From Kiritimatiellia bacterium (lineage in GTDB: Bacteria > Verrucomicrobiota > Kiritimatiellia > RFP12 > DVOR01): a stretch of DNA of 40,685 nucleotides. Below the pieces are notes generated by a model. The model was not told the DNA's origin, searched no databases, and was given only the letters and a program-made list of their open reading frames with translations. The translations under genes were made by a program, and so were the position numbers. The stretch covers positions 1 through 40,685 of the forward strand of contig JBJFGP010000185.1 in assembly GCA_051892815.1 (NCBI GenBank), written 5' to 3'. Position 1 is the first letter of the stretch; each line of letters begins with the position of its first letter. Positions 3,691 through 40,685 of this stretch are shown piece by piece.

Positions 3691-4476
3691 TCAAGTCAAA
3701 GGCTCGAAACCAAGCACATGCCGCATGGAGTAGAGCCCTGCCGGCTTGTCGGCGAGCCAGACGGCAGCCCGGACGGCTCCGACTGCGAAGGCCTCGCGCG
3801 AAGAGGCTTTATGGGTAATCTCCAATCGCTCCTGATCTGCCGCAAAGATGACGGTATGGTCGCCGACCACGGAGCCGCCGCGCAAGGCGTGAATGCCAAT
3901 CTCACCCCTCGGGCGCTCGCCTACGATACCTTCGCGACCGTAGATTGTCACCTCGGAAAGGTTGACCTGGCGGCCTTTGGCAAGGGCTTCGGCCAATCCC
4001 AAGGCGGTTCCACTGGGTGCATCCTTCTTGAGCCGATGGTGCATTTCGACAATCTCGGCATCGTAATCAGGGCCCAGGATGGTAGCCGCGCGGTTGACCA
4101 GTTCGAGCATCAGATTGATGCCGAGGCTATAGTTCGGCGCGAACACAAGAGGCATTACACGGGCAGTCTCTGCTATCAACCTTTTCTCGTCAGCGTCGAA
4201 CCCCGTCGTCCCCAAAACCATACGGACACCTGCCCTGGCGGCTTGCTTGAGGTGCGCCGCACTGGCAGTATGGAAGGTGAAGTCGATAATGACATCCGCG
4301 GCGGCGGGGAAGTCCGAACTATAGGGCAATTCGCGCCCAGGAACGGTCTGACCGATAAGCGGATGATCGGGACGGTCGACGGCGGCACAGAGGGTGGTCT
4401 GCGGGTTGCGGTCGACGCAGTCCATAAGAAACTGGCCCATGCGTCCGGCGGCACCCAAAACGGCGACTTTAAGCAT
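3691..4476 (-). CDS. dapB: 4-hydroxy-tetrahydrodipicolinate reductase
   Basis: MLKVAVLGAAGRMG, GTTG, EMHHRLKKDAPSGTA motifs; follows dapA. Confidence 0.96.
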   Translation of the reverse strand: MLKVAVLGAAGRMGQFLMDCVDRNPQTTLCAAVDRPDHPLIGQTVPGRELPYSSDFPAAADVIIDFTFHTASAAHLKQAARAGVRMVLGTTGFDADEKRLIAETARVMPLVFAPNYSLGINLMLELVNRAATILGPDYDAEIVEMHHRLKKDAPSGTALGLAEALAKGRQVNLSEVTIYGREGIVGERPRGEIGIHALRGGSVVGDHTVIFAADQERLEITHKASSREAFAVGAVRAAVWLADKPAGLYSMRHVLGFEPLT

Positions 4477-4490
4477 TGTTAGGCTCCCTT

Positions 4491-5360
4491 TTAGTGGATA
4501 ATTTGGGCGGCTCTCATAGTCGCGGCCAGCTTCTCGCGGTTGACAGGTGCGAGTTCGCACAGCGGCAAGCGGTAGACCTCGGGCATCTTACCCATTAGGG
4601 CGAGGGCTGCCTTGACGGGGACGGGATTGGTTTCTATGAAGAGGTCGCGGAAAAGGTGGTAGTAGCGGTCGTGGATGGCTAGGGCCTCGGCGAAGCGGTT
4701 CTCTGCGGCGAGGGCGCACAGTTGCGCCATTTCGGAGGGTATGATATTCGAGGCGACGCTGATGACGCCCTTTGCTCCGACAGCCATCATCGCCAACGCC
4801 AGGGAGTCGTCTCCGGAAAGGACTTCGAGCTGGCAAGCGGTACGAATGGCGCTGACGCGGTCTACGCTGCCGGCGGCTTCTTTGATTGCGACGATGGCCT
4901 CGTGGGTCGAGAGCCGCACGACGACATCCAAAGGAATCTCTTTGGAGGCACGCCCGGGAACGTTGTAGAGGATGACGGGAAGACCGAGGTCGGCAATGGT
5001 GGAGAAGTGGCGGTAGAGGCCTTCGCTACTAGGCTTATTATAGTAAGGAGTGACCTGGAGGGTTGCGTCGACGCCCATGGGAAGGACTTCGCGCGTGAGT
5101 TCGATTGCCTCGGCGGTCGAGTTGGCGCCGGTGCCGGCGATGACCTGGATTCGCTTGTCGACAATCTCGGCGGTGGTTTCAATCACCTTGAGGTGTTCGC
5201 GGTGGTCGAGGGTCGGGGATTCGCCTGTCGTGCCGACCGGAACGACGCCTGCGACGCCTGCGGCGACTTGCTCTTCGAGGAAGATGCGCAAGCGGCCGTA
5301 GTCGACCGAGCCATCTTCATTGAACGGCGTGACCATTGCCGTGTAGACGCCCTTGAACAT
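4491..5360 (-). CDS. dapA: 4-hydroxy-tetrahydrodipicolinate synthase
   Basis: GTTGESPTL, PYYNKP, LYNVPGR, IKEA, ETNPVPVK motifs. Confidence 0.97.
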   Translation of the reverse strand: MFKGVYTAMVTPFNEDGSVDYGRLRIFLEEQVAAGVAGVVPVGTTGESPTLDHREHLKVIETTAEIVDKRIQVIAGTGANSTAEAIELTREVLPMGVDATLQVTPYYNKPSSEGLYRHFSTIADLGLPVILYNVPGRASKEIPLDVVVRLSTHEAIVAIKEAAGSVDRVSAIRTACQLEVLSGDDSLALAMMAVGAKGVISVASNIIPSEMAQLCALAAENRFAEALAIHDRYYHLFRDLFIETNPVPVKAALALMGKMPEVYRLPLCELAPVNREKLAATMRAAQIIH

Positions 5361-5399
5361 GGGTTTCAATCCTATTGGTGGTGTATTCAGCGCGGATAC

Positions 5400-5434
5400 A
5401 AAAAAAGCCCCGGAAGTGGTGGTTCCGCGGCTTT
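5400..5434 (-). terminator. intrinsic terminator after tRNA-Cys
   Basis: AAAGCCGCGGAA-loop-TTCCGGGGCTTTTTTT on minus strand. Confidence 0.75.
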
Positions 5435-5438
5435 GAAG

Positions 5439-5512
5439 TGGAGGTGCGAAGCGGAGTCGAACCGCTGTACGAGGTTTTGCAGACCTCTGCCTAACCGCTC
5501 GGCCATCGCACC
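5439..5512 (-). tRNA. tRNA-Cys(GCA)
   Basis: GGTGCGATGGCCGAGCGGTTAGGCAGAGGTCTGCAAAACCTCGTACAGCGGTTCGACTCCGCTTCGCACCTCCA; cloverleaf, GCA anticodon, encoded CCA. Confidence 0.97.
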
Positions 5513-5523
5513 AAAAGGCGTGA

Positions 5524-5619
5524 TTACTTCTTCATCGCTTGGGCGTGACGATCGGCGATGCGACGCTTGTAGGCTTCGCGGCGACGGCGCTTGGCGACTT
5601 TTCTGTGTTGTTGTCCCAT
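5524..5619 (-). CDS. 31-aa highly basic small protein MGQQHRKVAKRRRREAYKRRIADRHAQAMKK
   Basis: Consensus promoter 10 nt upstream of ATG; codon usage like highly expressed genes; stop 11 nt before tRNA-Cys. Confidence 0.7.
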   Translation of the reverse strand: MGQQHRKVAKRRRREAYKRRIADRHAQAMKK

Positions 5620-5629
5620 AAGGCTTTTC

Positions 5630-5658
5630 AGTATAGCCGATTCGGGGCTCTTTGGCAA
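5630..5658 (-). promoter_or_regulatory. sigma70 promoter for small protein + tRNA-Cys
   Basis: TTGCCA-17bp-TATACT. Confidence 0.75.
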
Positions 5659-5700
5659 GCAGAAAGTTGCCCTTGCGGCAAGAAATTGTCGGGAGCCTAT

Positions 5701-5802
5701 CTCGGGCACCTCTGGGAGGAATAGGTTAGCGGGATTGGGGGCAGCGGGTTGCAAGGTCTGGGAGGCACTGATGGGTATCGACAAGGGGGTGAGGTAGGCA
5801 TC
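5701..5802. repeat. 23-bp-period array of degenerate 10-bp palindrome (5 units)
   Basis: CTCGGGCACC 5701, GGTTAGCGGG 5724, GGTTGCAAGG 5747, GATGGGTATC 5770, GGTAGGCATC 5793. Confidence 0.7.
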
Positions 5803-5847
5803 TTTCGGGGCGGAAGCGATTTTCTTGTGGGAGTCGCGAAAAAGCGT

Positions 5848-5878
5848 TTGACTTGGAGTGCACTCCAAGTGTTATAGT
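5848..5878 (+). promoter_or_regulatory. MerR-type promoter/operator (AdhR/NmlR-like)
   Basis: TTGACT-19bp-TATAGT with perfect palindrome ACTTGGAGTGCACTCCAAGT (5851-5870) over the long spacer. Confidence 0.92.
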
Positions 5879-5885
5879 GGATTGC

Positions 5886-6347: not shown

Positions 6348-6365
6348 CCGAAAGGAAGTGCCCGT

Positions 6366-6932: not shown

Positions 6933-6939
6933 CCTCAAT

Positions 6940-8022
6940 ATGCCATCCTTTTCCCCAAAGACAGCCCTCCTCTACGGTCTGATGCTGACCTGCTGGAGCC
7001 CCGTGCCCCTGAACGCCGCCCCAAAGATTCCTGCCAACCTCACCATCGCAGAGCAAGGCTTCTTCGCCTCCGGCGGAAGCGTCACACCGCCCCTCCCCGG
7101 CGACTACGATCCGCGCCAAAACTGGCTCGACCCCACACGCGCCGGCAATACCGCGCATATCGACCACGCAAGCGTCTTCTACCAGGTTCCCAGCCAACCA
7201 ACCGGTGCACCAGTCGTCTTCCTCCACGGCTATGGACAGTCGAGACTTTGCTGGATGGCTACCCCAGACGGACGCCCTGGCTGGGCGCAAATCTTCCTCA
7301 AAGCAGGGCACCCCATCTACCTCGTCAACCAGCCCCGCCGAGGCCATGCAGGCGCTACAACACAAGCCAATCTCAGACGCGCGGTAGACGAATGCAAGCC
7401 CGGCGACCAGGCCTGGTATACGCACTTCCGTATCGGACGCGTACCGCCCGAACGCTATTCCGAAAGCCAATTCCCCGAAGGCCCGGGCGCCTTGAACCAG
7501 TTCCTGCGCCAAGCCACCCCAAACACCGGGCCGTACGACGAAAACCTCTTCGGAGAAACCCTCGCCGCCGTCCTTTCGGATGTACGGACGCGGACTGGTC
7601 GCAAGAGCGTCTACATCACCCACTCGCAAGGAAGCCGCATCGGCTGGAACACGCCGGTGGGGGACATTGCCGCCATCATCGCCATCGAACCGGGAGGTAC
7701 CCCGCCCATCGGCGGCAAGCATTTCCGGAAATTGCTCCAAGCAAAGATTCCCATTCTTTTGCTCTTTGGGGATTACATCGACAATGGCCCTGCCGACATT
7801 GCCTCCACTGCTTTCTGGCGGAATATCCGCAACACGGCCCGCACCTTCGCCAAAGCCTACCGCGCGGCAGGTGGGAAGGCAGAGTGCATGGACTTGCCTG
7901 CGATGGGCATCAAGGGTAACAGCCACTTTCTCTTCCAGGAACGCAACAATGACACAATAGCCCGCCTTGCCTTGGAATGGCTGGCAAAGCCAGAAACCAC
8001 GCGAAAGGAACGCAATCCATGA
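6940..8022 (+). CDS. exported alpha/beta hydrolase
   Basis: VFLHGYGQS, WMATPDGRPGW, THSQG nucleophile elbow, GIKGNSHFLFQE; start moved to ATG 6940. Confidence 0.85.
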   Translation: MPSFSPKTALLYGLMLTCWSPVPLNAAPKIPANLTIAEQGFFASGGSVTPPLPGDYDPRQNWLDPTRAGNTAHIDHASVFYQVPSQPTGAPVVFLHGYGQSRLCWMATPDGRPGWAQIFLKAGHPIYLVNQPRRGHAGATTQANLRRAVDECKPGDQAWYTHFRIGRVPPERYSESQFPEGPGALNQFLRQATPNTGPYDENLFGETLAAVLSDVRTRTGRKSVYITHSQGSRIGWNTPVGDIAAIIAIEPGGTPPIGGKHFRKLLQAKIPILLLFGDYIDNGPADIASTAFWRNIRNTARTFAKAYRAAGGKAECMDLPAMGIKGNSHFLFQERNNDTIARLALEWLAKPETTRKERNP

Positions 8023-10103
8023 ACCCAATTCTGGCAACCGCACTTGCCGCAACGGCGGCAACCCTTCATACGGGGGAAATCAAACTTTCGGATGGATGGG
8101 ACAAAACCTTTCCCAAGTCCAGCAAGGTTGAACACGCCAAGGTGACATTCAAGAACCGCTTCGGCATCATCCTAGCCGCGGATGTCTACAAGCCCAAGGA
8201 GGCGAAAGGGAAGCTGGCTGCCCTTGCGGTCTGCGGGCCCTTTGGCGCGGTGAAGGAGCAAGCCAGCGGTCTCTACGCGCAAACGCTTGCCGAGCGGGGA
8301 TTCCTGACCATTGCCTTTGACCCTTCCTACACGGGAGAGTCAGGCGGGGGACCTCGCCATGTCACCTCTGTCGACCTTTCTACGGAGGACTTTTCTGCGG
8401 CTATTGACTACCTGTCGACCCGTAGGGATGCGGATGCGGGGCGGATAGGAATCGTGGGAATTTGCGGCTGGGGAGGCTTTGCGCTCAATGCCGCCGCTGT
8501 GGACACGCGAATCCAAGCAACGGTGGCGGTGACGCTGTATGATATGCACCGGCTGATTGCCAAGGGCTACAACGATTCCGCCGATTCTCCGGCGGCGCGG
8601 CGGGCTATCCGCGAGCGGCTGTCGAAGCAACGGACGGCCGATGCGCGGTCTCACCTGCCGCCCTGCCGCGCGGGCGGGGTGGTGGACCCTTTGCCCGCAG
8701 ATGCGCCCCAATTTGTCCGGGACTACCATGCCTATTACAAAACGCCCCGCGGCTTCCATTCCCGCTCGCTCAATTCGACGGAGGGGTTCAATCTGTCGTC
8801 GCGGCTCGCGCTTGTCAACACGCCGATTCTCGCCTATGCGGAGGAGATTGAAAGTGCGGCTCTGGTGGTGCATGGCGAGTTGGCGCACAGCCGATACTTT
8901 GACGAGACGGTCTTTGCGCGGCTGAAGGGTTCGAACAAGGAGTTGCTCATCGTGCCGGGGGCTTCGCACTGCGATCTCTACGACGGTGGCGGCAAGGGAG
9001 CGATTCCTTTTGATGCCATCGAGGCCTTTCTCCGCAAGCACCTTTCGGGGCGGGCAGAAAGGAAGCCGGCACCACAAGAGGTTGGCAAGATCGCCCCGGC
9101 GGAGTTGACGCCGCGCGAGACGGCGCTTGCGAATGTCGGGGCGGCGACGGCGCTCGGCGACGAGGGTCTTCTGAGGGTATCTTTTGACGCTTGCTTTGAC
9201 GCCGGCGTGACGCTTTCGGAGGCGAAAGAGGCGGTCGGGCACCTCTACGCCTATTGCGGTTTCCCGCGCGCGCTCAATGCCGCTTCGGTATTGATGAAGT
9301 GTGCGGCGGAACGGCATCCGACGGTCGGCGAGGAGGGGCCCGAACCCTTCGTCCTGAGGGACTCTTTCGAGGTGGGTTCCTCCAACCAGACGCGCCTGTG
9401 CGGACGCGAGATCAAGGGCGGTCTCTTTGACTTCCACCCGCAGCTCGACGCCTATCTCAAGGCACATCTCTTTGGCGATTTGTTCAACCGGAAACTCTTG
9501 GATTGGCGCACGCGGGAACTGCTCACCATTGCGGCGTTGGCGGCATGTCCGGAGACCGCCCCGCAGTTGAAGTCGCACCTGGCGGTGGGCAGGCTCAACG
9601 GCATTTCCGAGGCGCAGGCGGAGGCGATTCTCCGCCGCGTCCGCCGTCCCGAAGCCCCTGAAAGTCTGCCGCGGAACTGGTCGTCCATCCCCGTCGGGAA
9701 GCCCAACCTCGCCTACTCGGCGCACTTTACCGGACGGAGTTATCGGCACCCATTGGCGACGCGTCCGGTCGGGTCGGCCGGGGTCTCATTCGAGCCATCC
9801 TGCCGCAACGATTGGCATATTCACCGGGCCGACTCGGGCGGCGGTCAAATCCTCATCGTCACGGCGGGAACGGGGCTCTACCAGGAGTGGGGACGCCCCG
9901 CGCGGAAACTCGTCAAGGGCGAGGCCGTCTTCATTGCCCCGGCTGTCAAACACTGGCACGGCGCCGCGCCGGACAAGTGGTTCCAGCACATCGCCATTGA
10001 GGTCCCCGGCACGAACGCTTCAACCCAGTGGCTTGAGCGGGTCGCGGACGCCGACTACCTCAAAGCCGCGCAAGAGGCCCAAGCGATTCCTGCCAACCTT
10101 TAG
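8019..10103 (+). CDS. fusion: YcjY-like alpha/beta hydrolase + carboxymuconolactone decarboxylase (CMD/AhpD-like) + cupin
   Basis: GPFGAVKEQ, GICGWGG, ASHCDLYD; then LYAYCGFPRALNA and AHLFGDLF; then FEPSCRNDWHIH...GGGQILI...KHWHGA; ATGA overlap with upstream gene. Confidence 0.85.
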   Translation: MNPILATALAATAATLHTGEIKLSDGWDKTFPKSSKVEHAKVTFKNRFGIILAADVYKPKEAKGKLAALAVCGPFGAVKEQASGLYAQTLAERGFLTIAFDPSYTGESGGGPRHVTSVDLSTEDFSAAIDYLSTRRDADAGRIGIVGICGWGGFALNAAAVDTRIQATVAVTLYDMHRLIAKGYNDSADSPAARRAIRERLSKQRTADARSHLPPCRAGGVVDPLPADAPQFVRDYHAYYKTPRGFHSRSLNSTEGFNLSSRLALVNTPILAYAEEIESAALVVHGELAHSRYFDETVFARLKGSNKELLIVPGASHCDLYDGGGKGAIPFDAIEAFLRKHLSGRAERKPAPQEVGKIAPAELTPRETALANVGAATALGDEGLLRVSFDACFDAGVTLSEAKEAVGHLYAYCGFPRALNAASVLMKCAAERHPTVGEEGPEPFVLRDSFEVGSSNQTRLCGREIKGGLFDFHPQLDAYLKAHLFGDLFNRKLLDWRTRELLTIAALAACPETAPQLKSHLAVGRLNGISEAQAEAILRRVRRPEAPESLPRNWSSIPVGKPNLAYSAHFTGRSYRHPLATRPVGSAGVSFEPSCRNDWHIHRADSGGGQILIVTAGTGLYQEWGRPARKLVKGEAVFIAPAVKHWHGAAPDKWFQHIAIEVPGTNASTQWLERVADADYLKAAQEAQAIPANL

Positions 10104-10190
10104 ACCCCAATCCTGCCTATCTTTAGGCTCCATTCCTGCCTACCTCCGAGGGCGAGAGGTTGCAACCTGCCGCCCCAAAAAGTTGCCAAG
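10089..10190. repeat. 23-bp-period array (5 units)
   Basis: CCTGCCAACC 10089, CCTGCCTATC 10112, CCTGCCTACC 10135, GGTTGCAACC 10158, AGTTGCCAAG 10181. Confidence 0.85.
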
Positions 10191-10194
10191 AAAC

Positions 10195-11448
10195 TCACTC
10201 GTCCGAAGTCGAACGGGCAGGCGGCGGGCGGTAGGACCGCGGACGCTGGCGGACGCGGGATCGGGCCTTGATGCGGGCATGGAGTTCAAGCGCCGAACGG
10301 ATACGCGACTCTGCCTCGCGAATGTCGGAATTGGATGGAAAGCGAAGCCGCAAAGCCTCAATCGATTCCAACCCGCGGCGGAGTTCGTCGTCGCGCAAAT
10401 CGGTCGATTCACGGTCAATGTCCGTGAACGCTGCCGCCAGCGAACGCGCCGCCCGGGCCGCTTCAATCTCAGTCGCCGCAAGCGTCCGCTGCGACTGCCG
10501 GTAGGCGAGAAAGAGCGCGGCGAAAAGCCCCAACGCCGTCGCCACAAGCCCACCGGCCGCCGCCAATCCAAGCGGATTCCGTCGCCCCCACAAAGCCACC
10601 CGGCGAGGCCAGGGAAGCGGATGCGCGCAGGTCGGTCGATGCTCCAGAACCCGTTCCAAATCGTCCGCGAATGCCGCCACATCTGCGTAGCGCCGAGCCG
10701 AATCGGAAGCCGTCGCCTTCCCTAGAACATACTCCCGATCGCGAGGGATTCCCGCCCGCTCCGCCAAGGCGCACAACTCCATCAGCGTCACCCCAAGCGC
10801 ATACTGATCGCTCCCCGCGCTCGCCGGCGAACCGGCGTGCAGCTCGGGTGCCATATACCGCCGCGTCCCCGCGCGAACCGCCCCCTCGCCTGCCAAACAC
10901 GCCAGCCCGAAATCACCCAACTTCCACCGACCGTTCGTATCAACCAACAGGTTCTCCGGCTTGATATCCCTGTGCAGCACACCACAGGTATGGGCATAGG
11001 CCAGGGCACGCGCGACATCCACCCCTAGCGACGCCACCTCCCGCCAATCAGAATAGCCCCAATCGCGCGCCGTCCGACCAGGCAAACGCTCCATCGCAAA
11101 GTAGCAAATCCCCTCTGAGACGCCCGCCGAATAGACCTCGACAATCCCAGGATGGTGCAACCGGGCGACCAACCTTCCCTCCTCCGAAAAACGCGTCCGG
11201 CAAGCCGTATCCTGCGCAAGACCAGGGCGCAAAATCTTCAACGACACCAGGCGATCGAGCGATACCTGCCGAGCCTCGTAGACGATACCCATCGCCCCCC
11301 GACCAACTTCCCCCTGCACCTGAAAGTCGCCACCCAAGAGTTCCGGGAAAACAAACGCCCCGCCCGGCATCGCTGGAATGCCGGACAGGGCGTCAAGCTC
11401 ATCTGCCAGAGCCTTCAAGTGCAAGGGAAGGCGCTCGTCCGGAAGCAT
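10195..11448 (-). CDS. Hanks-type Ser/Thr protein kinase with one TM helix
   Basis: GRGAMGIVY, SLKIL, HRDIKPEN, DFG, YMAPE; hydrophobic LGLAAAGGLVATALGLFAALFLAY. Confidence 0.92.
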   Translation of the reverse strand: MLPDERLPLHLKALADELDALSGIPAMPGGAFVFPELLGGDFQVQGEVGRGAMGIVYEARQVSLDRLVSLKILRPGLAQDTACRTRFSEEGRLVARLHHPGIVEVYSAGVSEGICYFAMERLPGRTARDWGYSDWREVASLGVDVARALAYAHTCGVLHRDIKPENLLVDTNGRWKLGDFGLACLAGEGAVRAGTRRYMAPELHAGSPASAGSDQYALGVTLMELCALAERAGIPRDREYVLGKATASDSARRYADVAAFADDLERVLEHRPTCAHPLPWPRRVALWGRRNPLGLAAAGGLVATALGLFAALFLAYRQSQRTLAATEIEAARAARSLAAAFTDIDRESTDLRDDELRRGLESIEALRLRFPSNSDIREAESRIRSALELHARIKARSRVRQRPRSYRPPPARSTSDE

Positions 11449-11999: not shown

Positions 12000-12102
12000 G
12001 GGTAAGAGGATGAAAAAGGATTGAATCAGGGTGAACTTTACCTGTGGATTCGGGGAGTGGATTGCGTTCTATAGTGGATGAGGAAGGAAAGGTTTCGCCA
12101 TT

Positions 12103-13437: not shown

Positions 13438-13463
13438 ACCAACCCCAAGAGGAGGATGATACG

Positions 13464-15255: not shown

Positions 15256-15330
15256 CGCATTGCCGCACGGGAACAACGCCAACGGGCGGGCATCCGTCGC
15301 ACGACGCCCCGCCTTGACAAGGAATCAATT

Positions 15331-15432
15331 TCTGCCAACCTTTGGGAGTGACTGGTAGCCACCATTCGCTCCATCTGCTACGCACGAATCGCACGCAGAG
15401 ATTGGCACCTCTATTCCCGATTCGTGCCAATC
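15331..15432. repeat. 23-bp-period array (5 units, possibly extending to 15285)
   Basis: TCTGCCAACC 15331, GGTAGCCACC 15354, GCTACGCACG 15377, GATTGGCACC 15400, CGTGCCAATC 15423; GGCGGGCATC at 15285 in phase. Confidence 0.8.
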
Positions 15433-15474
15433 TTATGGGCTCGATCTCAAGTTGCCGCGGGAGACGCGGATGGC

Positions 15475-21483: not shown

Positions 21484-21484
21484 A

Positions 21485-27837: not shown

Positions 27838-28767
27838 GTGGATCTTTCTCTTGCCAAGGGCGAAGAGCCCTGCTTTGAGCGGATTTGCCGCATTTCCTTG
27901 CCGCCCGGGAGTCTTTCGGATACGGCTCTTCTAGAACTCGTCTCGGCACGATTCACCTACCGTTCGCTAGACGAATGGGCGCAGGCGCTAGCCGAGAAGC
28001 AGCTTGAACGCTGTGGTGATGCGCTCCTCTTTCATCCCCCTCTCCTGCCCGAACCCGAAGTCGACTGGGACTGCCGAATGCTCCACGAAGACGAGGAAGT
28101 TCTGGTTATCGACAAGTCGGGCAATCTGCCTTGCCATCCGGCTGGACGATTCTTCAATCACACCCTCTGGGCGCTGCTCAAACACAAGGGTCTCGAAGCC
28201 CCCCAATTCGTCAACCGTCTCGACCGCGAGACCTCCGGCATCGTGCTGGTAGCCAAGACGGCGCAAGCCTGCAAGGAGTTGCGGCGCGAGTTTGCCGCGC
28301 AGCGCGTCGAAAAACACTACCAGGCTGCGGTCGAAGGTACTCTTCATTCCGCGCAAACGGCCCGAGGTACCCTCGCGCAAGCCCACACGCCGATCCGAAA
28401 GAAGCAGGAGTTCCGCTTCGATTCCAACGGCTCCGTCATCACTGAATTCACCCCCCTCGCGCATCGAAACATGCCCGAGTTGACCCTGCTCGACATCCAC
28501 CCCATCGGCGGGAAACTCCATCAGATACGCGCGACGCTCTTGGCTTGTGGCTTCCCTTTGGTCGGCGACAAACTCTACGGCGTCGACGAAACCATCTACC
28601 TTCGTTTCGCCAAAGGGCAACTCACGCCGACCGACACCCTTCGCCTCCGCATCAAGCGGCAAGCCCTCCACGCCGCCACCCTAACCCTGCGGCGGCATAG
28701 CGAAACCTGCCGCTACGAAGCCCCCCTTCCCTCCGACATCGCCGGGCTCTTCCAGGCCCACGATTGA
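27838..28767 (+). CDS. RluA-family pseudouridine synthase
   Basis: IDKSGNLPCHP, NRLDRETSG, HQIRA, GDKLY, QALHA. Confidence 0.9.
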   Translation: MDLSLAKGEEPCFERICRISLPPGSLSDTALLELVSARFTYRSLDEWAQALAEKQLERCGDALLFHPPLLPEPEVDWDCRMLHEDEEVLVIDKSGNLPCHPAGRFFNHTLWALLKHKGLEAPQFVNRLDRETSGIVLVAKTAQACKELRREFAAQRVEKHYQAAVEGTLHSAQTARGTLAQAHTPIRKKQEFRFDSNGSVITEFTPLAHRNMPELTLLDIHPIGGKLHQIRATLLACGFPLVGDKLYGVDETIYLRFAKGQLTPTDTLRLRIKRQALHAATLTLRRHSETCRYEAPLPSDIAGLFQAHD

Positions 28768-28890
28768 TACCAACCACTATCCCCGAAAGGTTGCTACCCG
28801 CCCCCCGCGCAGATAGCAACCTCTTCCCTCAAATCCAACCTATCTCGCCCCCCAACTGGTTGCAACCAAGGTCGACGCGAGGTGGGCAGC
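28766..28890. repeat. 23-bp-period array (6 units)
   Basis: GATACCAACC 28766, GGTTGCTACC 28789, GATAGCAACC 28812, CCAACCTATC 28835, GGTTGCAACC 28858, GGTGGGCAGC 28881. Confidence 0.9.
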
Positions 28891-28896
28891 AAAGGG

Positions 28897-29892
28897 TCAA
28901 TCAATATAGGCTGGCGGCAATGCCGGAACGGACACCTCCAGAGCACCGTCCAACGCATCCGACGCCTCCGGCTCGGCAGGGATTTCGACAATCTCATCGT
29001 CAGCATCCGCCGCAGGAGCAACCTCTGGTGCCGGAAGCAATGCCCGCAGAAACAGCACTGCAAGGACCAAACCAACCAGCCCCGCGCCAACCTGCACCCC
29101 GCGCCACTGAATAGGAGACAAACGCCCCTTCAGGCTGCCGCCCCAGCCCCGCACACGCGCCAGCCCGATCGAGATAGCCTTGCCGCAACCGCCAAACACC
29201 GACAGGCTCCATTCCGACACCCGCGACCACACCGAACCACCACATTCACGCCCACCCGTCGGTTCCTTCGCGACACTCGGACGCTCCTCAAGCGGCGTAT
29301 ACGCCGAGAAAAGAGGTTTCGACTTGTCCCGCGTAAACAACTCAGACCGCGACAGCCCGCGCCGGGCAGGAATCGGAGGCGGCACATCGCGAGAAACCTC
29401 CGGAATCTCAGCGGCAACCGGTTGCTCGGACGGCAACGGTTCGGGCGGCAACTCGCCCCCCTTCAACTCCAAGACCTCCTCAGCGGCGACATCGGACGAA
29501 ACCGGCTCCTCGACCCTTTCCGATACTGCATCCGGCCCCGGAGCAACCACCTCAGGAGTCGGAGCCGCGGCAACCTCAGGAACCGTTTCAACCGGGCTCT
29601 TCTCCGGTTTCGGCGGCAACAATGGTTTCGACACACGCTTGGGAAGCGGCGTAATCGGCTTGCACCGAATCAGTTCCGCGTAATCCTTCAGCAAGGGCGC
29701 CGGATCCAACTCCAGCAACTCCGCGTAAAGGCGGATAAACCCCCGCCCGTAGATGGGAGCCGCAATCTTCCGAAAGTCCTCATTCTCCAGACTCTCGACA
29801 ATCCCCTCCGTCAAATTGATATTCGCCGCCACCTGGCTGGCTGTCATTCCACGGGCCAAACGGTTCTCGCGCAAAATCCGGCCTAAAGCCAT
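28897..29892 (-). CDS. RodZ-like HTH membrane protein
   Basis: LGRILRENRLARGMT...IYGRGFIRLYAELLELD; P/E-rich linker; one TM; downstream of ftsK. Confidence 0.8.
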   Translation of the reverse strand: MALGRILRENRLARGMTASQVAANINLTEGIVESLENEDFRKIAAPIYGRGFIRLYAELLELDPAPLLKDYAELIRCKPITPLPKRVSKPLLPPKPEKSPVETVPEVAAAPTPEVVAPGPDAVSERVEEPVSSDVAAEEVLELKGGELPPEPLPSEQPVAAEIPEVSRDVPPPIPARRGLSRSELFTRDKSKPLFSAYTPLEERPSVAKEPTGGRECGGSVWSRVSEWSLSVFGGCGKAISIGLARVRGWGGSLKGRLSPIQWRGVQVGAGLVGLVLAVLFLRALLPAPEVAPAADADDEIVEIPAEPEASDALDGALEVSVPALPPAYID

Positions 29893-29934: not shown

Positions 29935-32496
29935 CTAGTTCTCCGCCCCTTCCGAAGGTTCGGCAGCCTCCCCCTCCTGCTCAGCGGTCAGAGCCGATTC
30001 ATTGTCCGAATGCAACTCCAAATCAGTCACCCCAGAGGGCGCATAATTGTCAAGATCCACCAGAATGGTACGGGCAGCAGCACCGTTGGAGGGACCAACC
30101 ACCCCGTTCTCCTCCAACATATCCATCAGGTTCGCCGCTGTATTGTACCCAATCTTCAGATTGCGCTGAAGCGAAGAGGTCGATGCCCTCCTCGTCCGCC
30201 GCAAAACTTCAATCGCTTGGGCGTAAAGAGGGTTGTCCTCGGGGCCGGAGGTGGCCACCCCTTCGGGTGCGGGAATGGCACTTTCCGGTGATGTTTCTTC
30301 CCCGCCACCACCGAATTGTTCGAGTTCCTCGTTCGGGTCTGCTTCCTTGATGCTGGCCAGGCGCCTACGCAGGTCTTCGTCGAAACTAGTCGGACAATGT
30401 TCCTTGATGTAGGCTATCACCCGGGCCAATTCCTCGTCACGCATAAAGGCGGATTGTGCCCGCACAAGGTGGGAAACCTTGGGATTTTTGAAGAGCATAT
30501 CTCCGCGCCCGATGAGGGTTTCGGCGCCAAGGTCGTCGAGGATAATTCGGCTATCTGTGCCGGAAGAGACTTTAAGCGCGATGCGGCCGGCAATGTTGCC
30601 TTTGATCTGACCGGTTATCACGTCGGTGGAGGGGCGCTGGGTTGCAAGGATGAGGTGGATGCCTACGGCGCGGGACTTGGCGGTCAAACGAGCGATGCAG
30701 TTTTCCGCGTGTTTGGCGGTCTGCTTGTCGGCATTCATAATCTCGGCCACTTCGTCGACAACGACGACGATGTAGGGCATGGGTTTGGTGTCGCGCTCGG
30801 CCATCTCCTGGTCGAGGGGTAGGACGGTCTGGTGGCAGCGGTTGTATTCGACGATGCTTCTGCATCGGGCGTCTTCGAGGATGCGATATCGGCGTTCCAT
30901 CTCGACGACGGCCCATTGGAGTCCGAAGGCGACTTTGCGGATATCGGTGATGACGGGGACGAGCAGGTGGGGGAGGTTGTCGTAGGGGGCGAACTCGACT
31001 CGTTTGGGGTCAATCATGATGAACCGCACCTCTTCGGGGCGGCGGGACATGAGCAGGCCGACGATGATGGAGTTGACACAGACGCTCTTGCCGGAGCCTG
31101 TAGTACCGGCGACGAGGAGGTGCGGCATATCGGCCAAATCGGCGACGAGGTCTTTGCCTTCGGCGTCCTTGCCGATGGACATGGGGATGCGGAATTTACG
31201 GGTGGCCTCCTGCCAGGTTTTTCCTTCGAGGACTTCGCGCACGGTGACGGTTTTGGCGACTGCGTTGGGGATTTCGAGTCCTACAACTCCTTTGCCTGGG
31301 ATTGGCGCCTGAATGCGGAGGCTCTTGGCGGCGAGGCGCATCATCAGGTCTTTGGATTTGCCGCTGATGGCGTTGACGGGCACGCCGCGGTTAGGCAGGA
31401 GTTCGAACTGGGTGACCACGGGTCCGCTGACCACATTGGTGACCTGGACATCGATTTTGAATTCGGCGAGGCAGTCGACGACGGCGGTCTTGATGAGTTC
31501 GACATCTCCGGCTTCGGCCTGATCGGAGGAAGGCGGATCGAGCAGGTCGAGAGGTGGCAATGGATAGGGGGCATTGGTGGCAACCTCTTGTCCGGAAGGT
31601 TGGCAGGTCTGTGGGGCGGAGGTTGCCACCTCCGGCTCCTGGGGATTGGTATCAACCGGTTGCTGCTGCGCCTCGCGCTGACGGCGCAGGGCTTTGGCGG
31701 ACTCCTCCTGTTTGCGGCGCAAATTGGCCTCACGCTGCTTCTGGAGTTCTTTTGGGGAGAGCACAAGAGCAGAAGTCGCACGCTCGTCCGCCCGGGCCTG
31801 GCGAGCCTCCTCCTGCGCGGCGCGAATTCGCTCCAGCTGCTCGACGGAGGCTTCGCGCGGCAGGGACTCTTCGAGACGCTTCCGGCGGGATTCGCGGTAA
31901 GTCTCGAACCCGGCTCCGACTGCGCCCACGCCTCGGACAAACAGCGCCACCGCGGTGCGCACGCCAATCAGGAAGAGCACCAAGACCGCAAGCAGGATGA
32001 CAAGCAAAATCGCCGTTCCGACCGGACTGACGAGCCGTTCGAGCGCGCAGGTCACCAGCCAATACCCGACCGCCCCGCCGGCGTTGGGCAGAAGGTTGAG
32101 ATTCGCCAACAAGGGGCGAAACAGTTCAGACCGGAGTTGAATCAGCGAGGAAACCACAATCTGAATTCCCACCAGCAAAAGCATCCGCCTGCGCGCCGCC
32201 TGCGTCCGCCCGCAAGCCTGAAGAATCGAGTGCGCCAAGACCGACAGCGGCAGCAGCCAGTAGCCAATCCCCAGCAGGCTGTACCCGTAGAAAGTCAGCC
32301 ACGCCCCGACCAGCCCGATGGCATTGTGCGGCGGATTGTTCGCAGGCGAACACAGTTGGGGAATGTCCCGCCAATCGTATGTCAACACCGCCAGAATCGG
32401 GAAGACCATCAAGAGCGCGGCTATCCCTCCAGCCAGCCGCCGGAATGGCTGCTGCTCCGGAGAAACCTGCGACTTCTGCGACTCTCTACTGCTCAT
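29935..32496 (-). CDS. ftsK: DNA translocase FtsK
   Basis: N-terminal TMs, PHLLVAGTTGSGKS, IDPK, LATQRPS, gamma domain STSSLQRNLKIGYN. Confidence 0.97.
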   Translation of the reverse strand: MSSRESQKSQVSPEQQPFRRLAGGIAALLMVFPILAVLTYDWRDIPQLCSPANNPPHNAIGLVGAWLTFYGYSLLGIGYWLLPLSVLAHSILQACGRTQAARRRMLLLVGIQIVVSSLIQLRSELFRPLLANLNLLPNAGGAVGYWLVTCALERLVSPVGTAILLVILLAVLVLFLIGVRTAVALFVRGVGAVGAGFETYRESRRKRLEESLPREASVEQLERIRAAQEEARQARADERATSALVLSPKELQKQREANLRRKQEESAKALRRQREAQQQPVDTNPQEPEVATSAPQTCQPSGQEVATNAPYPLPPLDLLDPPSSDQAEAGDVELIKTAVVDCLAEFKIDVQVTNVVSGPVVTQFELLPNRGVPVNAISGKSKDLMMRLAAKSLRIQAPIPGKGVVGLEIPNAVAKTVTVREVLEGKTWQEATRKFRIPMSIGKDAEGKDLVADLADMPHLLVAGTTGSGKSVCVNSIIVGLLMSRRPEEVRFIMIDPKRVEFAPYDNLPHLLVPVITDIRKVAFGLQWAVVEMERRYRILEDARCRSIVEYNRCHQTVLPLDQEMAERDTKPMPYIVVVVDEVAEIMNADKQTAKHAENCIARLTAKSRAVGIHLILATQRPSTDVITGQIKGNIAGRIALKVSSGTDSRIILDDLGAETLIGRGDMLFKNPKVSHLVRAQSAFMRDEELARVIAYIKEHCPTSFDEDLRRRLASIKEADPNEELEQFGGGGEETSPESAIPAPEGVATSGPEDNPLYAQAIEVLRRTRRASTSSLQRNLKIGYNTAANLMDMLEENGVVGPSNGAAARTILVDLDNYAPSGVTDLELHSDNESALTAEQEGEAAEPSEGAEN
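31553..31653. repeat. 23-bp-period array inside the FtsK linker (5 units; one 22-bp step)
   Basis: GGTGGCAATG 31553, GGTGGCAACC 31576, GGTTGGCAGG 31598, GGTTGCCACC 31621, GATTGGTATC 31644. Confidence 0.8.
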
Positions 32497-34266: not shown

Positions 34267-34270
34267 GATG

Positions 34271-37090: not shown

Positions 37091-37139
37091 ACTTTAACCG
37101 CCAATTCCTTTCACCTTATATGAGGGTGCGGCCCCCAAT

Positions 37140-37226
37140 GGCGGATAGGCACCTTTCCCTCCCCAAGATAGCCACCTCCTGACGCCACAGGTGCCAACCA
37201 GCGCCCCCAAAAGGTGCCTATCCGCC
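37140..37226. repeat. 23-bp-period array (4 units) bounded by a perfect 17-bp inverted repeat
   Basis: GATAGGCACC 37144, GATAGCCACC 37167, GGTGCCAACC 37190, GGTGCCTATC 37213; GGCGGATAGGCACCTTT 37140-37156 / AAAGGTGCCTATCCGCC 37210-37226. Confidence 0.9.
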
Positions 37227-37254
37227 GCCCGCGCCGGTGTCCGACCGCTTCTGC

Positions 37255-37283
37255 TTGCAAAGGCAGCGGAATTTTGCTATCAT
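37255..37283 (+). promoter_or_regulatory. sigma70 promoter of NifU-like/GGGtGRT operon
   Basis: TTGCAA-17bp-TATCAT with extended TGn. Confidence 0.65.
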
Positions 37284-38036: not shown

Positions 38037-38050
38037 AGAGGAACACCACC

Positions 38051-39052: not shown

Positions 39053-39071
39053 CATTCTTCGCACCTTGAAG

Positions 39072-39110
39072 GAGGCGGCTGGGGCGATTGGCGCCACAGC
39101 CGCCTCTTTT
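39072..39110 (+). terminator. intrinsic terminator
   Basis: GAGGCGGCTG...CAGCCGCCTC-TTTT. Confidence 0.75.
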
Positions 39111-39149
39111 CGTCTATCCAAGTTTTTCCCCGCCGGATGCGCTCTGGTG

Positions 39150-39178
39150 TTGCTTTCCCGTGGCAAATCCAGTAGAAT
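39150..39178 (+). promoter_or_regulatory. sigma70 promoter
   Basis: TTGCTT-17bp-TAGAAT. Confidence 0.55.
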
Positions 39179-39220
39179 AAAGGTGTCTACGATTTACATG
39201 CACTCCAAGGTACGACTGTG

Positions 39221-39739
39221 ATGAAAAAAGCATTGAGTCTCCTCTTTGTCGCTTGCGCCCTCTGTTGCGCGCCCCTGCTCGCCCAAAGCGAGAATCAAAA
39301 GACCTACGATCCTGCGCCGGTTGCTTTCAACACCAGCACCGAGGCGGATGTCGTCGGGGTTCGTTTCAACTTTCCCTTTGGCCGTTGCGAGCAGGTGACC
39401 GGCTTCGATTTGGGGCTTCTGGGCAATGCCAACAATTTCTTTGGCCTCCAGCTCAACATTCTTCGCAACAAGACCATCGACCGCATGGAAGGTATACAGA
39501 TTGGGCTCGTCAATCTTGCCGGCAATGCGTTTGGACTTCAGGCCGGGCTTTGGAACGAGAATCTGACTGCGGGCGGTTTCTCCGTGGGGCTGGTGAATGT
39601 TGCCGACCACCATTCGGGCATGCAGATTGGAATCATCAACCGGTGCGAATCAATCGATGGTTATCAGATTGGCGTCGTGAATGTCATCCGCTCCTCGGCG
39701 GTGCCTTTCTGCCCTGTCATCAACTTCACTTTCGACTGA
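39221..39739 (+). CDS. exported GxQxGxxN-repeat protein (LA_2272/VC2662-like surface repeat)
   Basis: Signal peptide; repeats GIQIGLVN, GLQAGLWN, GMQIGIIN, GYQIGVVN; C-terminal PVINFTF. Confidence 0.8.
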   Translation: MKKALSLLFVACALCCAPLLAQSENQKTYDPAPVAFNTSTEADVVGVRFNFPFGRCEQVTGFDLGLLGNANNFFGLQLNILRNKTIDRMEGIQIGLVNLAGNAFGLQAGLWNENLTAGGFSVGLVNVADHHSGMQIGIINRCESIDGYQIGVVNVIRSSAVPFCPVINFTFD

Positions 39740-39913
39740 GTTTCTGCCCGCCCCTTTGCCGGCAACTGCGTACGGAGGCTGTGTGCCGTTGGCCAGAAGG
39801 GTGCATTTTTCCGTCCCTGTGGAGCCACTTCGGCAAGCCGCGGCGGTGCTGGTTTGACAATCGCGTTTCTTCTCGCAAGCCCATAGGTCTAAACACAATG
39901 CGCGGCAACGATT

Positions 39914-40061
39914 GGTGCTAACCTGTTCCTCTGGGTGGTGCCAACCTGATGGTCCGAGAGGTTGCTTGGACGGGGGCGGGCAGGTTGGTATGATTGGGAT
40001 GCATTCGTTTACAGGTCCATCGGCTGGTGCAGGGGGACGGATGGCGCAGGAGGTTGCCGAT
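39914..40061. repeat. 23-bp-period array (4 clear units + 1 in phase)
   Basis: GGTGCTAACC 39914, GGTGCCAACC 39937, GGTTGCTTGG 39960, GGTTGGTATG 39983, GGTTGCCGAT 40052. Confidence 0.75.
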
Positions 40062-40166
40062 TGGGGGAGCCGGGCGAATCTCAATCGTAGAGCCAGTGAG
40101 GGGATGGGGTCCTGAACAACTCGATAAGCGTGCAGGGAGTTTTTTTCATAGCAGGAGAGATTGAGG

Positions 40167-40685
40167 ATGAGAATCAAAGCATTTCAGGCATTGCGCCCCA
40201 CGGTTGAAGCGGCCAAGCAGGTCGCGGCGGTTCCGTATGATGTGGTCGACACGGCGGAGGCCAAGGTCTTGGCCGAGGGCAATCCCCGCTCCTTCCTCCA
40301 TGTTTCACGCCCGGAAATCGACCTCCCGCCCGACACTGACATCCACTCGGACGCGGTGTACGCCCAAGGTCGAAAGGCCCTCGACACCCTGGTCCAGGCG
40401 GGCACGCTCCTTCGGGAAGGCAAGGATTCGCTCTATCTCTATCGTCAGACCATGGGCGAACATAGCCAAACCGGGTTGGTCGCGACCTGCCATGTCGGGG
40501 ACTACGAGGGAAATATCATCCGCAAGCACGAGAAGACCCGAAAGGATAAGGAAGACGACCGCACGCGCCACTGCCTGGAACTCAACGCCAACACCGGCCC
40601 CGTCTTTCTGACCTATCGCGATGAAGCCCCAATCGATGCCCTTTCCGAAGCCGTCACCGCGACACCTCCGCTCTACGACTTTACC
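40167..40685 (+). CDS. DUF1015 family protein, runs off window
   Basis: Own translation: MRIKAFQALRP...VPYDVV...SFLHVSRPEID...YLYRQTM...IRKHEKTRKDKEDDR. Confidence 0.9.
   Translation, partial: MRIKAFQALRPTVEAAKQVAAVPYDVVDTAEAKVLAEGNPRSFLHVSRPEIDLPPDTDIHSDAVYAQGRKALDTLVQAGTLLREGKDSLYLYRQTMGEHSQTGLVATCHVGDYEGNIIRKHEKTRKDKEDDRTRHCLELNANTGPVFLTYRDEAPIDALSEAVTATPPLYDFT

Follow-up and report, generated by a model that had tools for sequence, protein, structure and literature searches.

Skew waves centred on arrays of a 23-bp unit with a palindromic core in the genome of an uncultured gut bacterium

In fungi, the coding strand is C-biased at the 5' ends of genes and G-biased at the 3' ends, and the same is reported for fourfold-degenerate sites and flanking non-coding DNA (McLean & Tirosh 2011, PMC3315797). 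Human CpG islands are dispersed elements surrounded by a two-sided, complementary substitution asymmetry, for which both replication and recombination (biased gene conversion) are under discussion as causes (Polak & Arndt 2009, PMC2817419). Here we describe skew that switches at arrays of a 23-bp unit in the 2.15-Mb genome (93% complete) of an uncultured gut bacterium. The window, which is the whole stretch of 40,685 nt analysed, belongs to this genome. The pattern resembles the fungal one, in which each intergenic region carries a G-to-C flip in either gene orientation; here, however, it occurs in a bacterium and is anchored at repeat arrays instead of gene borders.

Skew waves around the arrays

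The genome holds 420 arrays by a strict definition and 729 by a lattice score, for which 15 was the calling threshold; arrays with a score of at least 30 are referred to as strong. Units repeat directly in tandem every 23 bp. This lattice is strict, since 845 same-strand pairs are spaced by 23 bp, compared with 30 by 22 bp and 5 by 24 bp. The core of the unit is a conserved palindrome, (A)GGT-N4-ACC(T). The unit PWM has 4209 matches versus 667 in the reversed-genome control, and the motif is over-represented (15 matches versus 0.77 expected). Divergence from a same-genus genome is 0.02-0.09 at the core positions G3, T5, A10 and C12 and 0.20 at the remaining unit positions. The arrays are thus conserved sites and most likely bound by a protein.

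The skew waves at the arrays were confirmed as real across the whole genome. At the arrays, the + strand switches from G/T-rich to C/A-rich. For the 190 of the 420 arrays that have 3-kb flanks, mean GC skew falls from +0.12 before the array to -0.15 beyond it, and 80% of the 190 flip in this direction versus 50% of 5000 random positions. After correction for gene strand, fourfold-degenerate sites around 271 arrays have a skew of +0.215 on the left and -0.275 on the right. The left-minus-right difference (L-R) is above zero at 85% of these arrays versus 48% of 3895 random positions (Mann-Whitney p 7e-46), both wings follow the stated direction at 68% of the 271 arrays taken singly, and L-R grows with array size from 0.35 in 2-unit arrays to 0.70 in the longest. 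Skew switches are also enriched at arrays relative to random positions, as the initial annotation had supposed: an array lies within 500 bp of 79% of the strong G-to-C flips (n = 235) versus 33% of random positions, and of only 16% of the strong C-to-G flips (n = 231). On the other hand, L-R is zero or negative at 26% of 486 lattice arrays, which counts against an array-anchored reading. The switch had been taken to occur at the arrays themselves. A flip is present there, but the change is gradual, spread as a smooth wave over some 1.3 kb, and not abrupt. From about 0 within 100 bp of the array, the effect climbs to a peak of 0.35 near 650 bp and falls back to 0 near 1750 bp, with a length scale that is constant regardless of the distance to the next array. 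Hundreds of arrays are each the centre of a zone of about 3.5 kb in which the strands are opposite in base composition independently of the genes. The skew within an array tracks its stronger wing (L 0.13, R -0.32 for arrays that are C-rich on the + strand; L 0.32, R -0.19 for those that are G-rich).

The effect is set by the distance to an array, not by gene borders. In + genes, fourfold skew has a baseline of -0.30 and moves to +0.03 on the left and -0.6 on the right of arrays; in - genes, the baseline of +0.30 moves to +0.58 on the left and about -0.1 on the right. Sign and size of the effect thus agree between + and - genes and among all four junction classes, which bears out the earlier claim that the flip ignores gene direction. 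Since + and - genes shift alike, a transcription-type sign rule, in which skew follows gene direction, does not apply. At strong arrays L-R is 0.55 for divergent (n = 36), 0.52 for convergent (n = 26), and 0.60 (n = 60) and 0.55 (n = 52) for tandem junctions. Array-free junctions show no flip (L-R -0.05 to -0.17; divergent -0.05, n = 26; convergent -0.17, n = 34), and neither do the 72 of them with spacers of at least 150 bp (-0.10 to -0.25; divergent -0.15, n = 15). Where the nearest array is more than 2 kb off, genes keep a level skew of about -0.3 (n = 34). General anchoring at gene ends, of the fungal type, is therefore not seen here. Skew dips to -0.66 in genes with an array at the 5' end only (n = 181), rises to +0.10 in those with one at the 3' end only (n = 170), and runs from -0.59 to -0.02 along genes with arrays at both ends (n = 94). 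Within genes of 1.8-3.6 kb the sign switches with distance from the array, and arrays inside confident genes have a weaker flip (L-R 0.13-0.14, 64-65% positive, n = 87).

Of the two strands beside an array, the one running out from it 5'->3' is termed the away strand, and the complementary one, which faces the array with its 3' end, the toward strand. C and A are enriched on the away strand, G and T on the toward strand; at synonymous sites the latter has G above C and T above A, as in replication-type skew. Toward-strand frequencies at fourfold sites are A.068, C.249, G.558 and T.126 at 500-1000 bp from the array, versus A.090, C.415, G.405 and T.089 far from arrays, so that the shift is mainly a loss of C and gain of G with GC4 constant. 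The baseline coding strand is C- and T-rich at fourfold sites (GC skew -0.30, AT skew -0.16), and the A-richness of the away strand is opposite to it. All eight fourfold families shift in the same direction, as do 7/7 C/T-ending and 4/5 A/G-ending twofold families; non-coding sites shift too, by 0.1-0.2, and codon positions 1 and 2 scarcely. The pattern thus survives control for gene strand and amino-acid composition, which the initial annotation had named as a possible refutation. Among genes, third-position skew has a 5-95% range of -0.70 to +0.28. Fourfold divergence from a sister genome is flat with array distance, at 0.16-0.21 in all nine bins, and the wings are therefore not hypermutable. 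Because divergence is flat and the change is mostly a swap of C for G at constant GC, fixation bias would fit the footprint as well as mutation. Of the idea that arrays anchor a bidirectional, strand-asymmetric process with a mutational footprint, the geometry (two-sided, gene-independent, size-dependent) held up, but the footprint need not be a mutational one.

Arrays of the window and a strain-variable segment

The skew sawtooth that the initial annotation had seen by eye in the window is present (Table 1), and its four hand-counted 60-mers are exact (G24/C12, G12/C29, G27/C14, G14/C27). Raw 1.2-kb skew is higher on the left than on the right at 8/8 of the positions it had listed as fitting, weakly at 40.0 kb (-0.01/-0.06). 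The flips at 22.2 and 31.6 kb do lie within genes, because Pfam confirms dxs (21368-23332, +) and ftsK (29938-32496, -). The dxs "array" is accepted in part: the flip there is strong, but the lattice is under the cut-off. By eye this lattice has the 23-bp unit spacing, and it adjoins the within-gene flip. The ftsK array lies in the linker between the membrane and motor domains, at about residues 270-325 of the 853-aa frame as placed by Pfam domains. The positions 15331 and 28766, already noted as not fitting cleanly, have another array 1 kb away or atypical genes next to them; the wings of the former overlap because the previous array is 1 kb away.

Table 1. Arrays and skew features of the window (L, left; R, right)
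Positions	Feature	Lattice score	Raw skew	Fourfold skew	Remarks
4300..40685	kb-scale GC/AT-skew wave				1-kb GC skew -0.24 to +0.20; AT skew opposite
3451..3542	weak 23-bp array, no G-to-C flip	20.6	L -0.09, R +0.06
5691..5835	23-bp array, G-to-C flip	38.6	L +0.16, R -0.12	L +0.34, R -0.16 (corrected)	flanked by dapA/tRNA (-) and merR-like (+), divergent
7004..7095	weak array or single palindromic site in hydrolase gene, no clear flip	20.3	L -0.05, R -0.11
9024..9115	weak array in 7977-10100 gene	16.7
10040..10223	strongest array, convergent genes, G-to-C flip	49.7	L +0.05, R -0.17		TRF period 23, 2.5 copies; three near-perfect units plus palindrome; left junction of variable segment
14230..14383	array between two co-directional + genes, G-to-C flip	36.2	L +0.03, R -0.14
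15282..15465	array, right junction of variable segment	35.0	L -0.21, R -0.06
17865..17933	short array or site, dtd 5' end, G-to-C flip	20.0	L +0.14, R -0.04	L +0.28, R -0.44
22229..22320	degenerate three-unit lattice inside dxs, sub-threshold	13.5	L +0.06, R -0.22	L +0.44, R -0.18
28733..28916	long array, rluD-like (+) / rodZ-like (-), offset flip	46.9	L -0.13, R -0.23
30194..30308	weak site near ftsK 3' end, at C-to-G flip, breaks rule	16.9	L -0.23, R +0.18
31520..31686	array inside ftsK, strong within-gene flip	45.3	L +0.17, R -0.09	L +0.41, R -0.58
37111..37255	array, divergent ftsH (-) / + gene, strong flip	47.9	L +0.13, R -0.18	L +0.21, R -0.57
39881..40041	array near contig end, flip weak or not measurable	40.1	L 0.00, R -0.04

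The segment 10102-15327 (5.2 kb) has array units at both borders and is absent from the sister genome, whose alignment breaks off at 10101 and picks up again at 15328. Contigs of 3/4 sequencing runs, from three studies, span the gap with one unit at the joint; those of X2, X3 and X5 join 10073/10101 to 15353. The arrays have been recombination junctions at least once. Two genomes from other genera of the same family carry 22/23-bp arrays of other palindromes with the opposite flip (G002: L-R -0.21 to -0.25, n = 26-36, p about 0.001; G005: L-R -0.40, n = 8). These opposite flips count against the reading of the arrays as seats of a process.

Possible causes of the asymmetry

A DNA-level process anchored at the putatively protein-bound arrays, which treats the two strands unequally for about 1.7 kb outward both ways, would explain the waves, and we give it slightly less than an even chance. 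Both the action at the DNA rather than the RNA level and the nature of the process are what we infer. In the likeliest class, the away strand would be repeatedly removed and made anew, or exchanged; candidates are 5'->3' resection that starts at an array carrying a break or nick, excision and resynthesis directed by a nick, and recombination heteroduplex with fixed polarity. The bias may be fixed because the toward strand, while exposed, is damaged (C to T, C to G) or, alternatively, through unequal mismatch correction in which C.C would escape and G.G and G.T would be corrected. Simple cytosine deamination does not predict a fall of C and rise of G at constant GC4, and plain resection from a break is at odds with an effect that is near 0 beside the array and maximal 650 bp off. 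The flat divergence and the weaker flip of arrays within genes also tell against the process. RecC (PF04257) and PDDEXK_1 (PF12705, the RecB/AddAB nuclease) had no match in the genome, which at 93% completeness leaves their absence unproven; a Chi/RecBCD version is therefore unlikely. It is a somewhat doubtful further step that a strand-specific DNA transaction is programmed to enter at the arrays, for instance site-specific nicking or breakage after which one strand is removed outward 5'->3', or a recombination heteroduplex of fixed polarity. If this is true, the arrays would act as hot spots of recombination or repair in a bacterium, at a density of about one per 3-5 kb, and would leave in the long term a strand-asymmetric conversion or mutation bias strong enough to dictate codon choice in most genes. 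The fungal gene-end skew would perhaps be the same process without a visible anchor.

Transcription-linked asymmetry would require the arrays to be combined start/stop elements or bidirectional promoters, whose initiation and termination phases, or outward sense and antisense transcripts, would leave C-bias just downstream and G-bias just upstream, an origin that has been proposed for fungal gene ends. In geometry this resembles the C-biased 5' and G-biased 3' ends of fungal genes (PMC3315797). Placement agrees with it as well: 278 of the 420 arrays are intergenic, whereas non-coding DNA is 13% of the genome, and arrays occupy 44/93 divergent and 33/94 convergent but only about 17% of tandem junctions, which fits operon borders. 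The baseline coding strand also shares its GC sign with the away strand. However, its AT sign is the reverse. Divergent junctions need promoters, yet the array-free ones have no flip, nor have the convergent ones; arrays within genes (n = 87, and the one in ftsK) flip the skew as well; and the effect is near zero at the array and maximal away from it. We consider transcription an unlikely cause.

Replication-fork pausing at protein-bound or structured arrays is improbable. Two templates would stay single-stranded, that of the lagging strand behind the paused fork and that of the leading strand ahead of it, with the helicase uncoupled from the polymerase and repriming 1-2 kb on, so that the toward strand is exposed on both sides in either fork direction. 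Such exposure should peak at the pause site, where the effect is zero; the wings have no excess divergence, and a C-for-G swap is not the usual outcome of deamination in ssDNA. Fork pausing would fit a toward strand that is G+T-rich, as leading strands (lagging-strand templates) are, the two wings at single arrays and the conserved palindromic cores expected of a bound protein. The 1.7-kb length scale also resembles bacterial Okazaki-fragment and repriming distances. Finally, the arrays may be secondary, arising or persisting at G/T-rich to C/A-rich changes that an unrelated process sets, or associated with the wave through codon usage, expression or amino-acid content of neighbouring genes. 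Composition explains neither the strict 23-bp lattice nor the conservation of the core, and the scaling with array length, the shift of codon families and non-coding sites with hardly any at positions 1 and 2, the within-gene sign change with distance and the array-free junctions, which yielded no other anchor, speak against it too. We regard this explanation as very improbable, even though the PWM core GGT-N4-ACC, a keto-rich half followed by an amino-rich half, mirrors the flanking composition, internal array skew follows the stronger wing and third-position skew differs widely among genes.

Comparison with known systems

The preferred reading, a DNA-level process anchored at the arrays, has partial likenesses in several systems. 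As in oriC/terminus skew, one strand is G+T-rich and its partner C+A-rich, most strongly at synonymous sites, and the arrays show terminus polarity; unlike it, there are 420-729 arrays per 2.15 Mb and not two switch points, the range is fixed at 1.7 kb, and for the most part C is exchanged for G while GC stays constant. The hundreds of strong flips (235 G-to-C and 231 C-to-G) and the loss of the effect about 1.75 kb from an array do not agree with origin/terminus switches. CpG islands are likewise dispersed sequence elements that act as centres, but their polarity is origin-like, the range extends up to megabases and the data are polarised substitutions (PMC2817419).

The arrays resemble REP/BIME elements as hundreds of short imperfect palindromes, mainly intergenic; they are direct 23-bp tandems, however, and not alternating REP pairs, and RAYT (Y1 transposase, PF01797) had no match in the 93%-complete genome. 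Iterons are direct repeats of 22-23 bp, a range that includes the period found here, but as replication origins the arrays are far too numerous. In the literature searched, neither REP/BIME nor iterons were reported as tied to local skew. Chi and RecBCD-AddAB hot spots lack their RecC or PDDEXK_1 counterpart in this genome, with the reservation on completeness given above. DNA uptake sequences (USS/DUS) are over-represented short motifs bound by the competence machinery; the motif here is over-represented, and ComEC is present in the genome.

Fungal gene-end skew is similar in form. The skew of genes with arrays at both ends follows its C-biased 5' and G-biased 3' arrangement, and non-coding sites agree; the present pattern differs from it in that arrays within genes flip the skew and AT skew is coupled in the opposite sense. 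A skew pattern of like geometry with an anchoring repeat array was not found in the literature searched, so this anchor is without precedent there, and the geometry of the array-anchored skew waves is of a kind known at fungal gene ends.

Strand flips anchored on the 23-bp arrays

Across the window, 1-kb GC skew oscillates about every 4 kb between extremes of -0.24 and +0.20, and AT skew moves in the opposite sense. The initial annotation held that the + strand turns from G-rich to C-rich at tandem 23-bp arrays. Recounting its four hand-counted 60-mers gave exactly the same numbers, and the flips were borne out in the window and extended to the whole genome (2.15 Mb in 251 contigs, 61% GC, coding fraction 87%), of which the window is one entire contig of 40.7 kb.

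The window contains 15 copies of the motif TGCCWAYCT, where 0.77 would be expected, and alignment of 357 genomic copies revealed flanking columns recurring at 23-bp intervals. An iterated 23-column weight matrix with a cut-off of at least 9 bits gave 4209 hits in the genome versus 667 in the reversed genome, which served as the control. Same-strand hit spacings peaked at 23, 46, 69 and 92 bp (845, 607, 393 and 155 pairs) and opposite-strand spacings at 7 bp (907 pairs). Thus, each unit consists of the palindromic core (A)GGT-N4-ACC(T) and, after it, a spacer rich in G and C. Strict arrays, defined as clusters of two or more units, number 420: 278 are intergenic, 113 lie in called genes and 29 are mixed. 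When a lattice score over three units is used instead, with a cut-off of 15 (reached at 3838 genome positions versus 58 in the reversed control), there are 729 lattice arrays, or one per 2.95 kb. Because the units are degenerate, TRF picks up just one of the arrays in the window. The gaps gave no support for regular spacing of the arrays (n = 246, with a median of 2.7 kb and a CV of 0.84). In comparison with G001, a genome of the same genus that is about 90% identical, the core positions G3, T5, A10 and C12 diverge by 0.02-0.09, and the remaining unit positions by 0.20, the same level as fourfold sites (0.19). On this pattern of substitution the cores are under constraint, so a predicted dimeric DNA-binding protein would read them. 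One full-strength array, at 31520-31686, sits in the reading frame of ftsK, in the linker that precedes the alpha domain; with a period of 23 bp, which three does not divide, it cannot be a repeat of the protein.

At 500-1000 bp from the array, the mean + strand skew was +0.12 before and -0.15 after (190 of the 420 strict arrays, those with 3-kb flanks). The left-minus-right difference (L-R) was positive at 80% of these arrays versus 50% of 5000 random positions, and motif-free detection by 22/23-bp self-similarity led to the same result (68 usable arrays, L-R 0.19, 79% positive). Conversely, a lattice array lies no more than 500 bp away from 79% of the 235 strong G-to-C flips, as against 33% of random positions and 16% of 231 strong C-to-G flips. 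Baseline-corrected fourfold skew at 271 arrays was +0.215 on the left and -0.275 on the right, with both wings, that is, the array flanks, in the expected direction at 68% and L-R above zero at 85% versus 48% for random positions (p = 7e-46). L-R rose from 0.35 at two-unit arrays to 0.70 at the longest ones; it was 0.30 at strong isolated palindromes, and weak single motif hits showed no flip. There are exceptions: L-R was zero or negative at 26% of 486 lattice arrays, and in the window the arrays at 3451, 7004 and 30194 do not fit the rule. The clear within-gene flip of the window is that of ftsK (fourfold skew +0.41 on the left and -0.58 on the right). Genome-wide, arrays at least 300 bp inside confident genes have a weaker flip (L-R 0.13-0.14, n = 87).

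On the strand that runs 5' to 3' towards the nearest array (the toward strand), corrected fourfold skew is -0.01 within the first 100 bp, peaks at 0.35 at 600-700 bp, returns to 0 at 1700-1800 bp and is then slightly negative. This length scale is independent of the gap to the next array, so a domain-type skew, linear and scaled to the gap, was rejected. The initial annotation had described a sawtooth; its strand flip is real, and since the profile is smooth and the length scale fixed, its shape is instead that of a wave of fixed reach. Orientation-averaged fourfold composition of the toward strand is A.068, C.249, G.558 and T.126 at 500-1000 bp, and A.090, C.415, G.405 and T.089 beyond 5 kb. 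The change is therefore chiefly G replacing C at constant GC, plus T over A. At twofold sites of the same strand T/(C+T) and G/(A+G) are raised, indicating that transitions take part.

Array position, gene direction and codon usage

In + genes, fourfold skew has a baseline of -0.30, which shifts to +0.03 on the left side of arrays and to -0.6 on the right side; in - genes it moves from +0.30 to +0.58 on the left and about -0.1 on the right. Codon positions 1 and 2 hardly change around arrays, and non-coding sites near them shift by 0.1-0.2. At arrays with a lattice score of at least 30, L-R was 0.55 at divergent junctions (n = 36), 0.52 at convergent ones (n = 26), and 0.60 and 0.55 at the two classes of tandem junction (n = 60 and 52). 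Junctions with a score below 10, including 72 with spacers of at least 150 bp, gave -0.05 to -0.17. Gene orientation as the whole cause was therefore rejected, because arrays add about 0.2 of raw skew and about 0.5 of fourfold skew in every orientation class. Fourfold skew changes by about 0.6 across one array and the coding-strand baseline is 0.3; the array outweighs gene direction in setting synonymous-site skew. The two asymmetries also differ in kind, since ordinary coding-strand bias is C/T-rich whereas the away strand, the partner that leaves the array 5' to 3', is C/A-rich.

Profiles along genes follow the arrays. Genes lacking an array within 2 kb keep an even skew of about -0.3 from start to end (n = 34). 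Skew dips to -0.66 where an array lies at the 5' end only (n = 181), climbs to +0.10 where it lies at the 3' end only (n = 170), and runs from -0.59 to -0.02 with arrays at both ends (n = 94). In genes of 1.8-3.6 kb touching one array, corrected skew starts low (0-0.15 over the initial 300 bp), reaches about 0.5 at 600-900 bp, is down to 0 by 1500-1800 bp and turns negative further out. This variation with distance inside single genes led us to reject gene-level or expression-level codon bias. Selection for particular tRNAs was also rejected: all eight fourfold families and 11 of the 12 twofold families (seven of seven C/T-ending, four of five A/G-ending) shift alike, TTR-Leu being flat. From a conserved array one can predict both sign and magnitude of the synonymous-site composition in the surrounding 3.5 kb or so.

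The genes of the window are an ordinary housekeeping set by Pfam (main features in the table), and Rfam found one tRNA and nothing else. Judged by dxs similarity, the closest named relatives are MAGs of Verrucomicrobia and Kiritimatiellia (58% and 56%). The top metagenome matches of the window DNA are from faeces and pig gut, and no RNA data set was listed as containing it. Upstream of a merR-like gene, TTGACT, a 19-nt palindromic spacer and TATAGT (5850-5880, by eye) form a classic MerR-type promoter layout. A codon-usage model called 1706 genes in the genome and missed three Pfam-supported genes of the window, whose coding strands are G/T-rich and which are situated in array wings of the wrong sign. 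Composition-based gene finding can be defeated by positional skew. In genomes of this kind, codon usage is largely positional, a point of relevance to gene finders and expression predictors. Two paralogous FGE-sulfatase-like genes on the same strand (12148-13434 and 14314-15252), with stretches about 80% identical, have coding-strand skews of +0.08 and -0.21 and GC3 skews of +0.05 and -0.39, respectively; this opposition fits their positions relative to arrays.

Features of the window and array loci in related genomes
Feature	Position	Strand	Source or remark
tRNA gene	5442-5512	-	Rfam; immediately left of the 5.7-kb array
Kinase	10198-11448		Pfam; missed by codon-usage caller
Sigma factor	11418-11999		Pfam; missed by codon-usage caller
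dxs	21368-23332	+	Pfam
RecD2	24859-27036		Pfam
HTH_25/RodZ-like	28900-29892		Pfam; missed by codon-usage caller
ftsK	29938-32496	-	Pfam
22/23-bp arrays, G002	L095-L134		Same motif recurs at several loci
22/23-bp arrays, G005	L200-L219		Same motif recurs at several loci

Arrays in related strains and genera

Over 108.6 kb aligned with G001, fourfold divergence was 0.16-0.21 in all bins of distance from the array, so hypermutable wings were not supported. C/G differences were slightly commoner near arrays (0.033-0.043 versus 0.021-0.029). On the toward strand, G/T differences numbered 398 versus 133 A/C in the wings, and 125 versus 144 far from arrays; these counts are unpolarised and carry no direction, and composition accounts for part of the G/T excess in the wings. 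At aligned sites the skew of G001 is the same (0.343 versus 0.345), which is not independent evidence.

G001 is without window positions 10102-15327; its alignment ends in a unit at 10086 and restarts in a unit at 15328. Contigs from three of four metagenome runs (three studies) connect 10073/10101 with 15353, and in two of them just one unit-like stretch intervenes. The contigs show no molecule ends, a feature that assembled sequence is in any case unable to display. Thus, this 5.2-kb segment, which carries a Ser/Thr kinase, an ECF sigma factor, the two FGE-sulfatase-like paralogues and an S9 peptidase, is a strain-variable cassette with its junctions in arrays, and array units bound at least one such segment. 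In one G001 contig the alignment skips from 7093 to 9556, as a deletion or an assembly variant; if real, the gap (7094-9555) would truncate one hydrolase gene at its end and take out most of the gene that follows. In metagenome run X1, one 12.5-kb contig matches 2815-12157 and 13411-16501; between the two pieces it carries about 105 bases of its own in place of about 1.25 kb of the window, within the first FGE-sulfatase-like gene (12157-13411).

Among the relatives sampled, G002, from a second genus of the family (743 kb), has 31-49 arrays of 22/23-bp period built on several different palindromes, such as AGTAACGTTACT and GTGACAGC..GCTGTCAC; the motif of our genome is not enriched there (185 hits versus 136 in the control). 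The G002 arrays sit at C-to-G flips, opposite to ours (corrected L-R -0.21 to -0.25, 31-36% positive, p about 0.001), and the flip is also opposite in G005, which belongs to another genus of the family and likewise has arrays of several palindromes (400 kb sampled, L-R -0.40, 8 usable arrays). G003 has 0-1 arrays of this period in 287 kb, and G013 (70% GC) has 3-8 in 400 kb. Dense arrays with G-to-C flips have so far been seen, among the genomes sampled, only in the genus of the window.

Candidate processes and known systems

The initial annotation suggested a bidirectional, strand-asymmetric process starting or stopping at the arrays and leaving a local mutational footprint. That suggestion is partly supported: the asymmetry is bidirectional and array-anchored, being found in both wings and every orientation class and depending on distance, and it may or may not arise through mutation. 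The toward strand carries a leading-strand-type signature, which makes the arrays terminus-like, not origin-like. Okazaki priming fixed at arrays was rejected for this genome, since by reasoning it should give skew of reversed sign, with an abrupt step where the array lies. Transcription is a possible cause only if the arrays act as special start-and-stop elements, given that junctions which contain promoters but lack arrays show no effect.

A process that exposes or retains the toward strand on both sides of the array would fit. One candidate is resection or excision in the 5' to 3' direction, beginning where the array is broken or nicked, after which the away strand is synthesised anew. Others are a recombination heteroduplex that has a fixed polarity and whose mismatches are corrected unequally, and fork pausing with uncoupling. 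MutS leaves C.C mismatches uncorrected and corrects G.G and G.T. Given these preferences, a fixation bias may account for the C-for-G swap and the flat divergence no less well than damage to single-stranded DNA. MutS and ComEC were found in the genome, and RecD2 lies within the window. RecC (PF04257), PDDEXK_1 (PF12705, the RecB/AddAB nuclease domain) and the Y1 transposase (PF01797) had no match in this assembly, which is 93% complete. The near-zero effect at the array itself is unaccounted for by any simple version of these processes.

Local strand asymmetry usually marks replication origins, termini or transcription. The array skew points to a putative array-binding factor and a DNA transaction in Kiritimatiellia. 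Full-text literature searches found no account of a local skew anchored on repeats in bacteria. The nearest published pattern is that of fungal genes, which are reported to have opposite GC skew at their 5' and 3' ends, fourfold sites included (PMC3315797); the geometry is common to both, and the array offers a testable physical anchor for a gene-scale skew sawtooth such as the fungal one. Human CpG islands, around which bidirectional strand asymmetries are reported (PMC2817419), are a conceptual parallel, but the polarity is origin-like there and terminus-like at the arrays.
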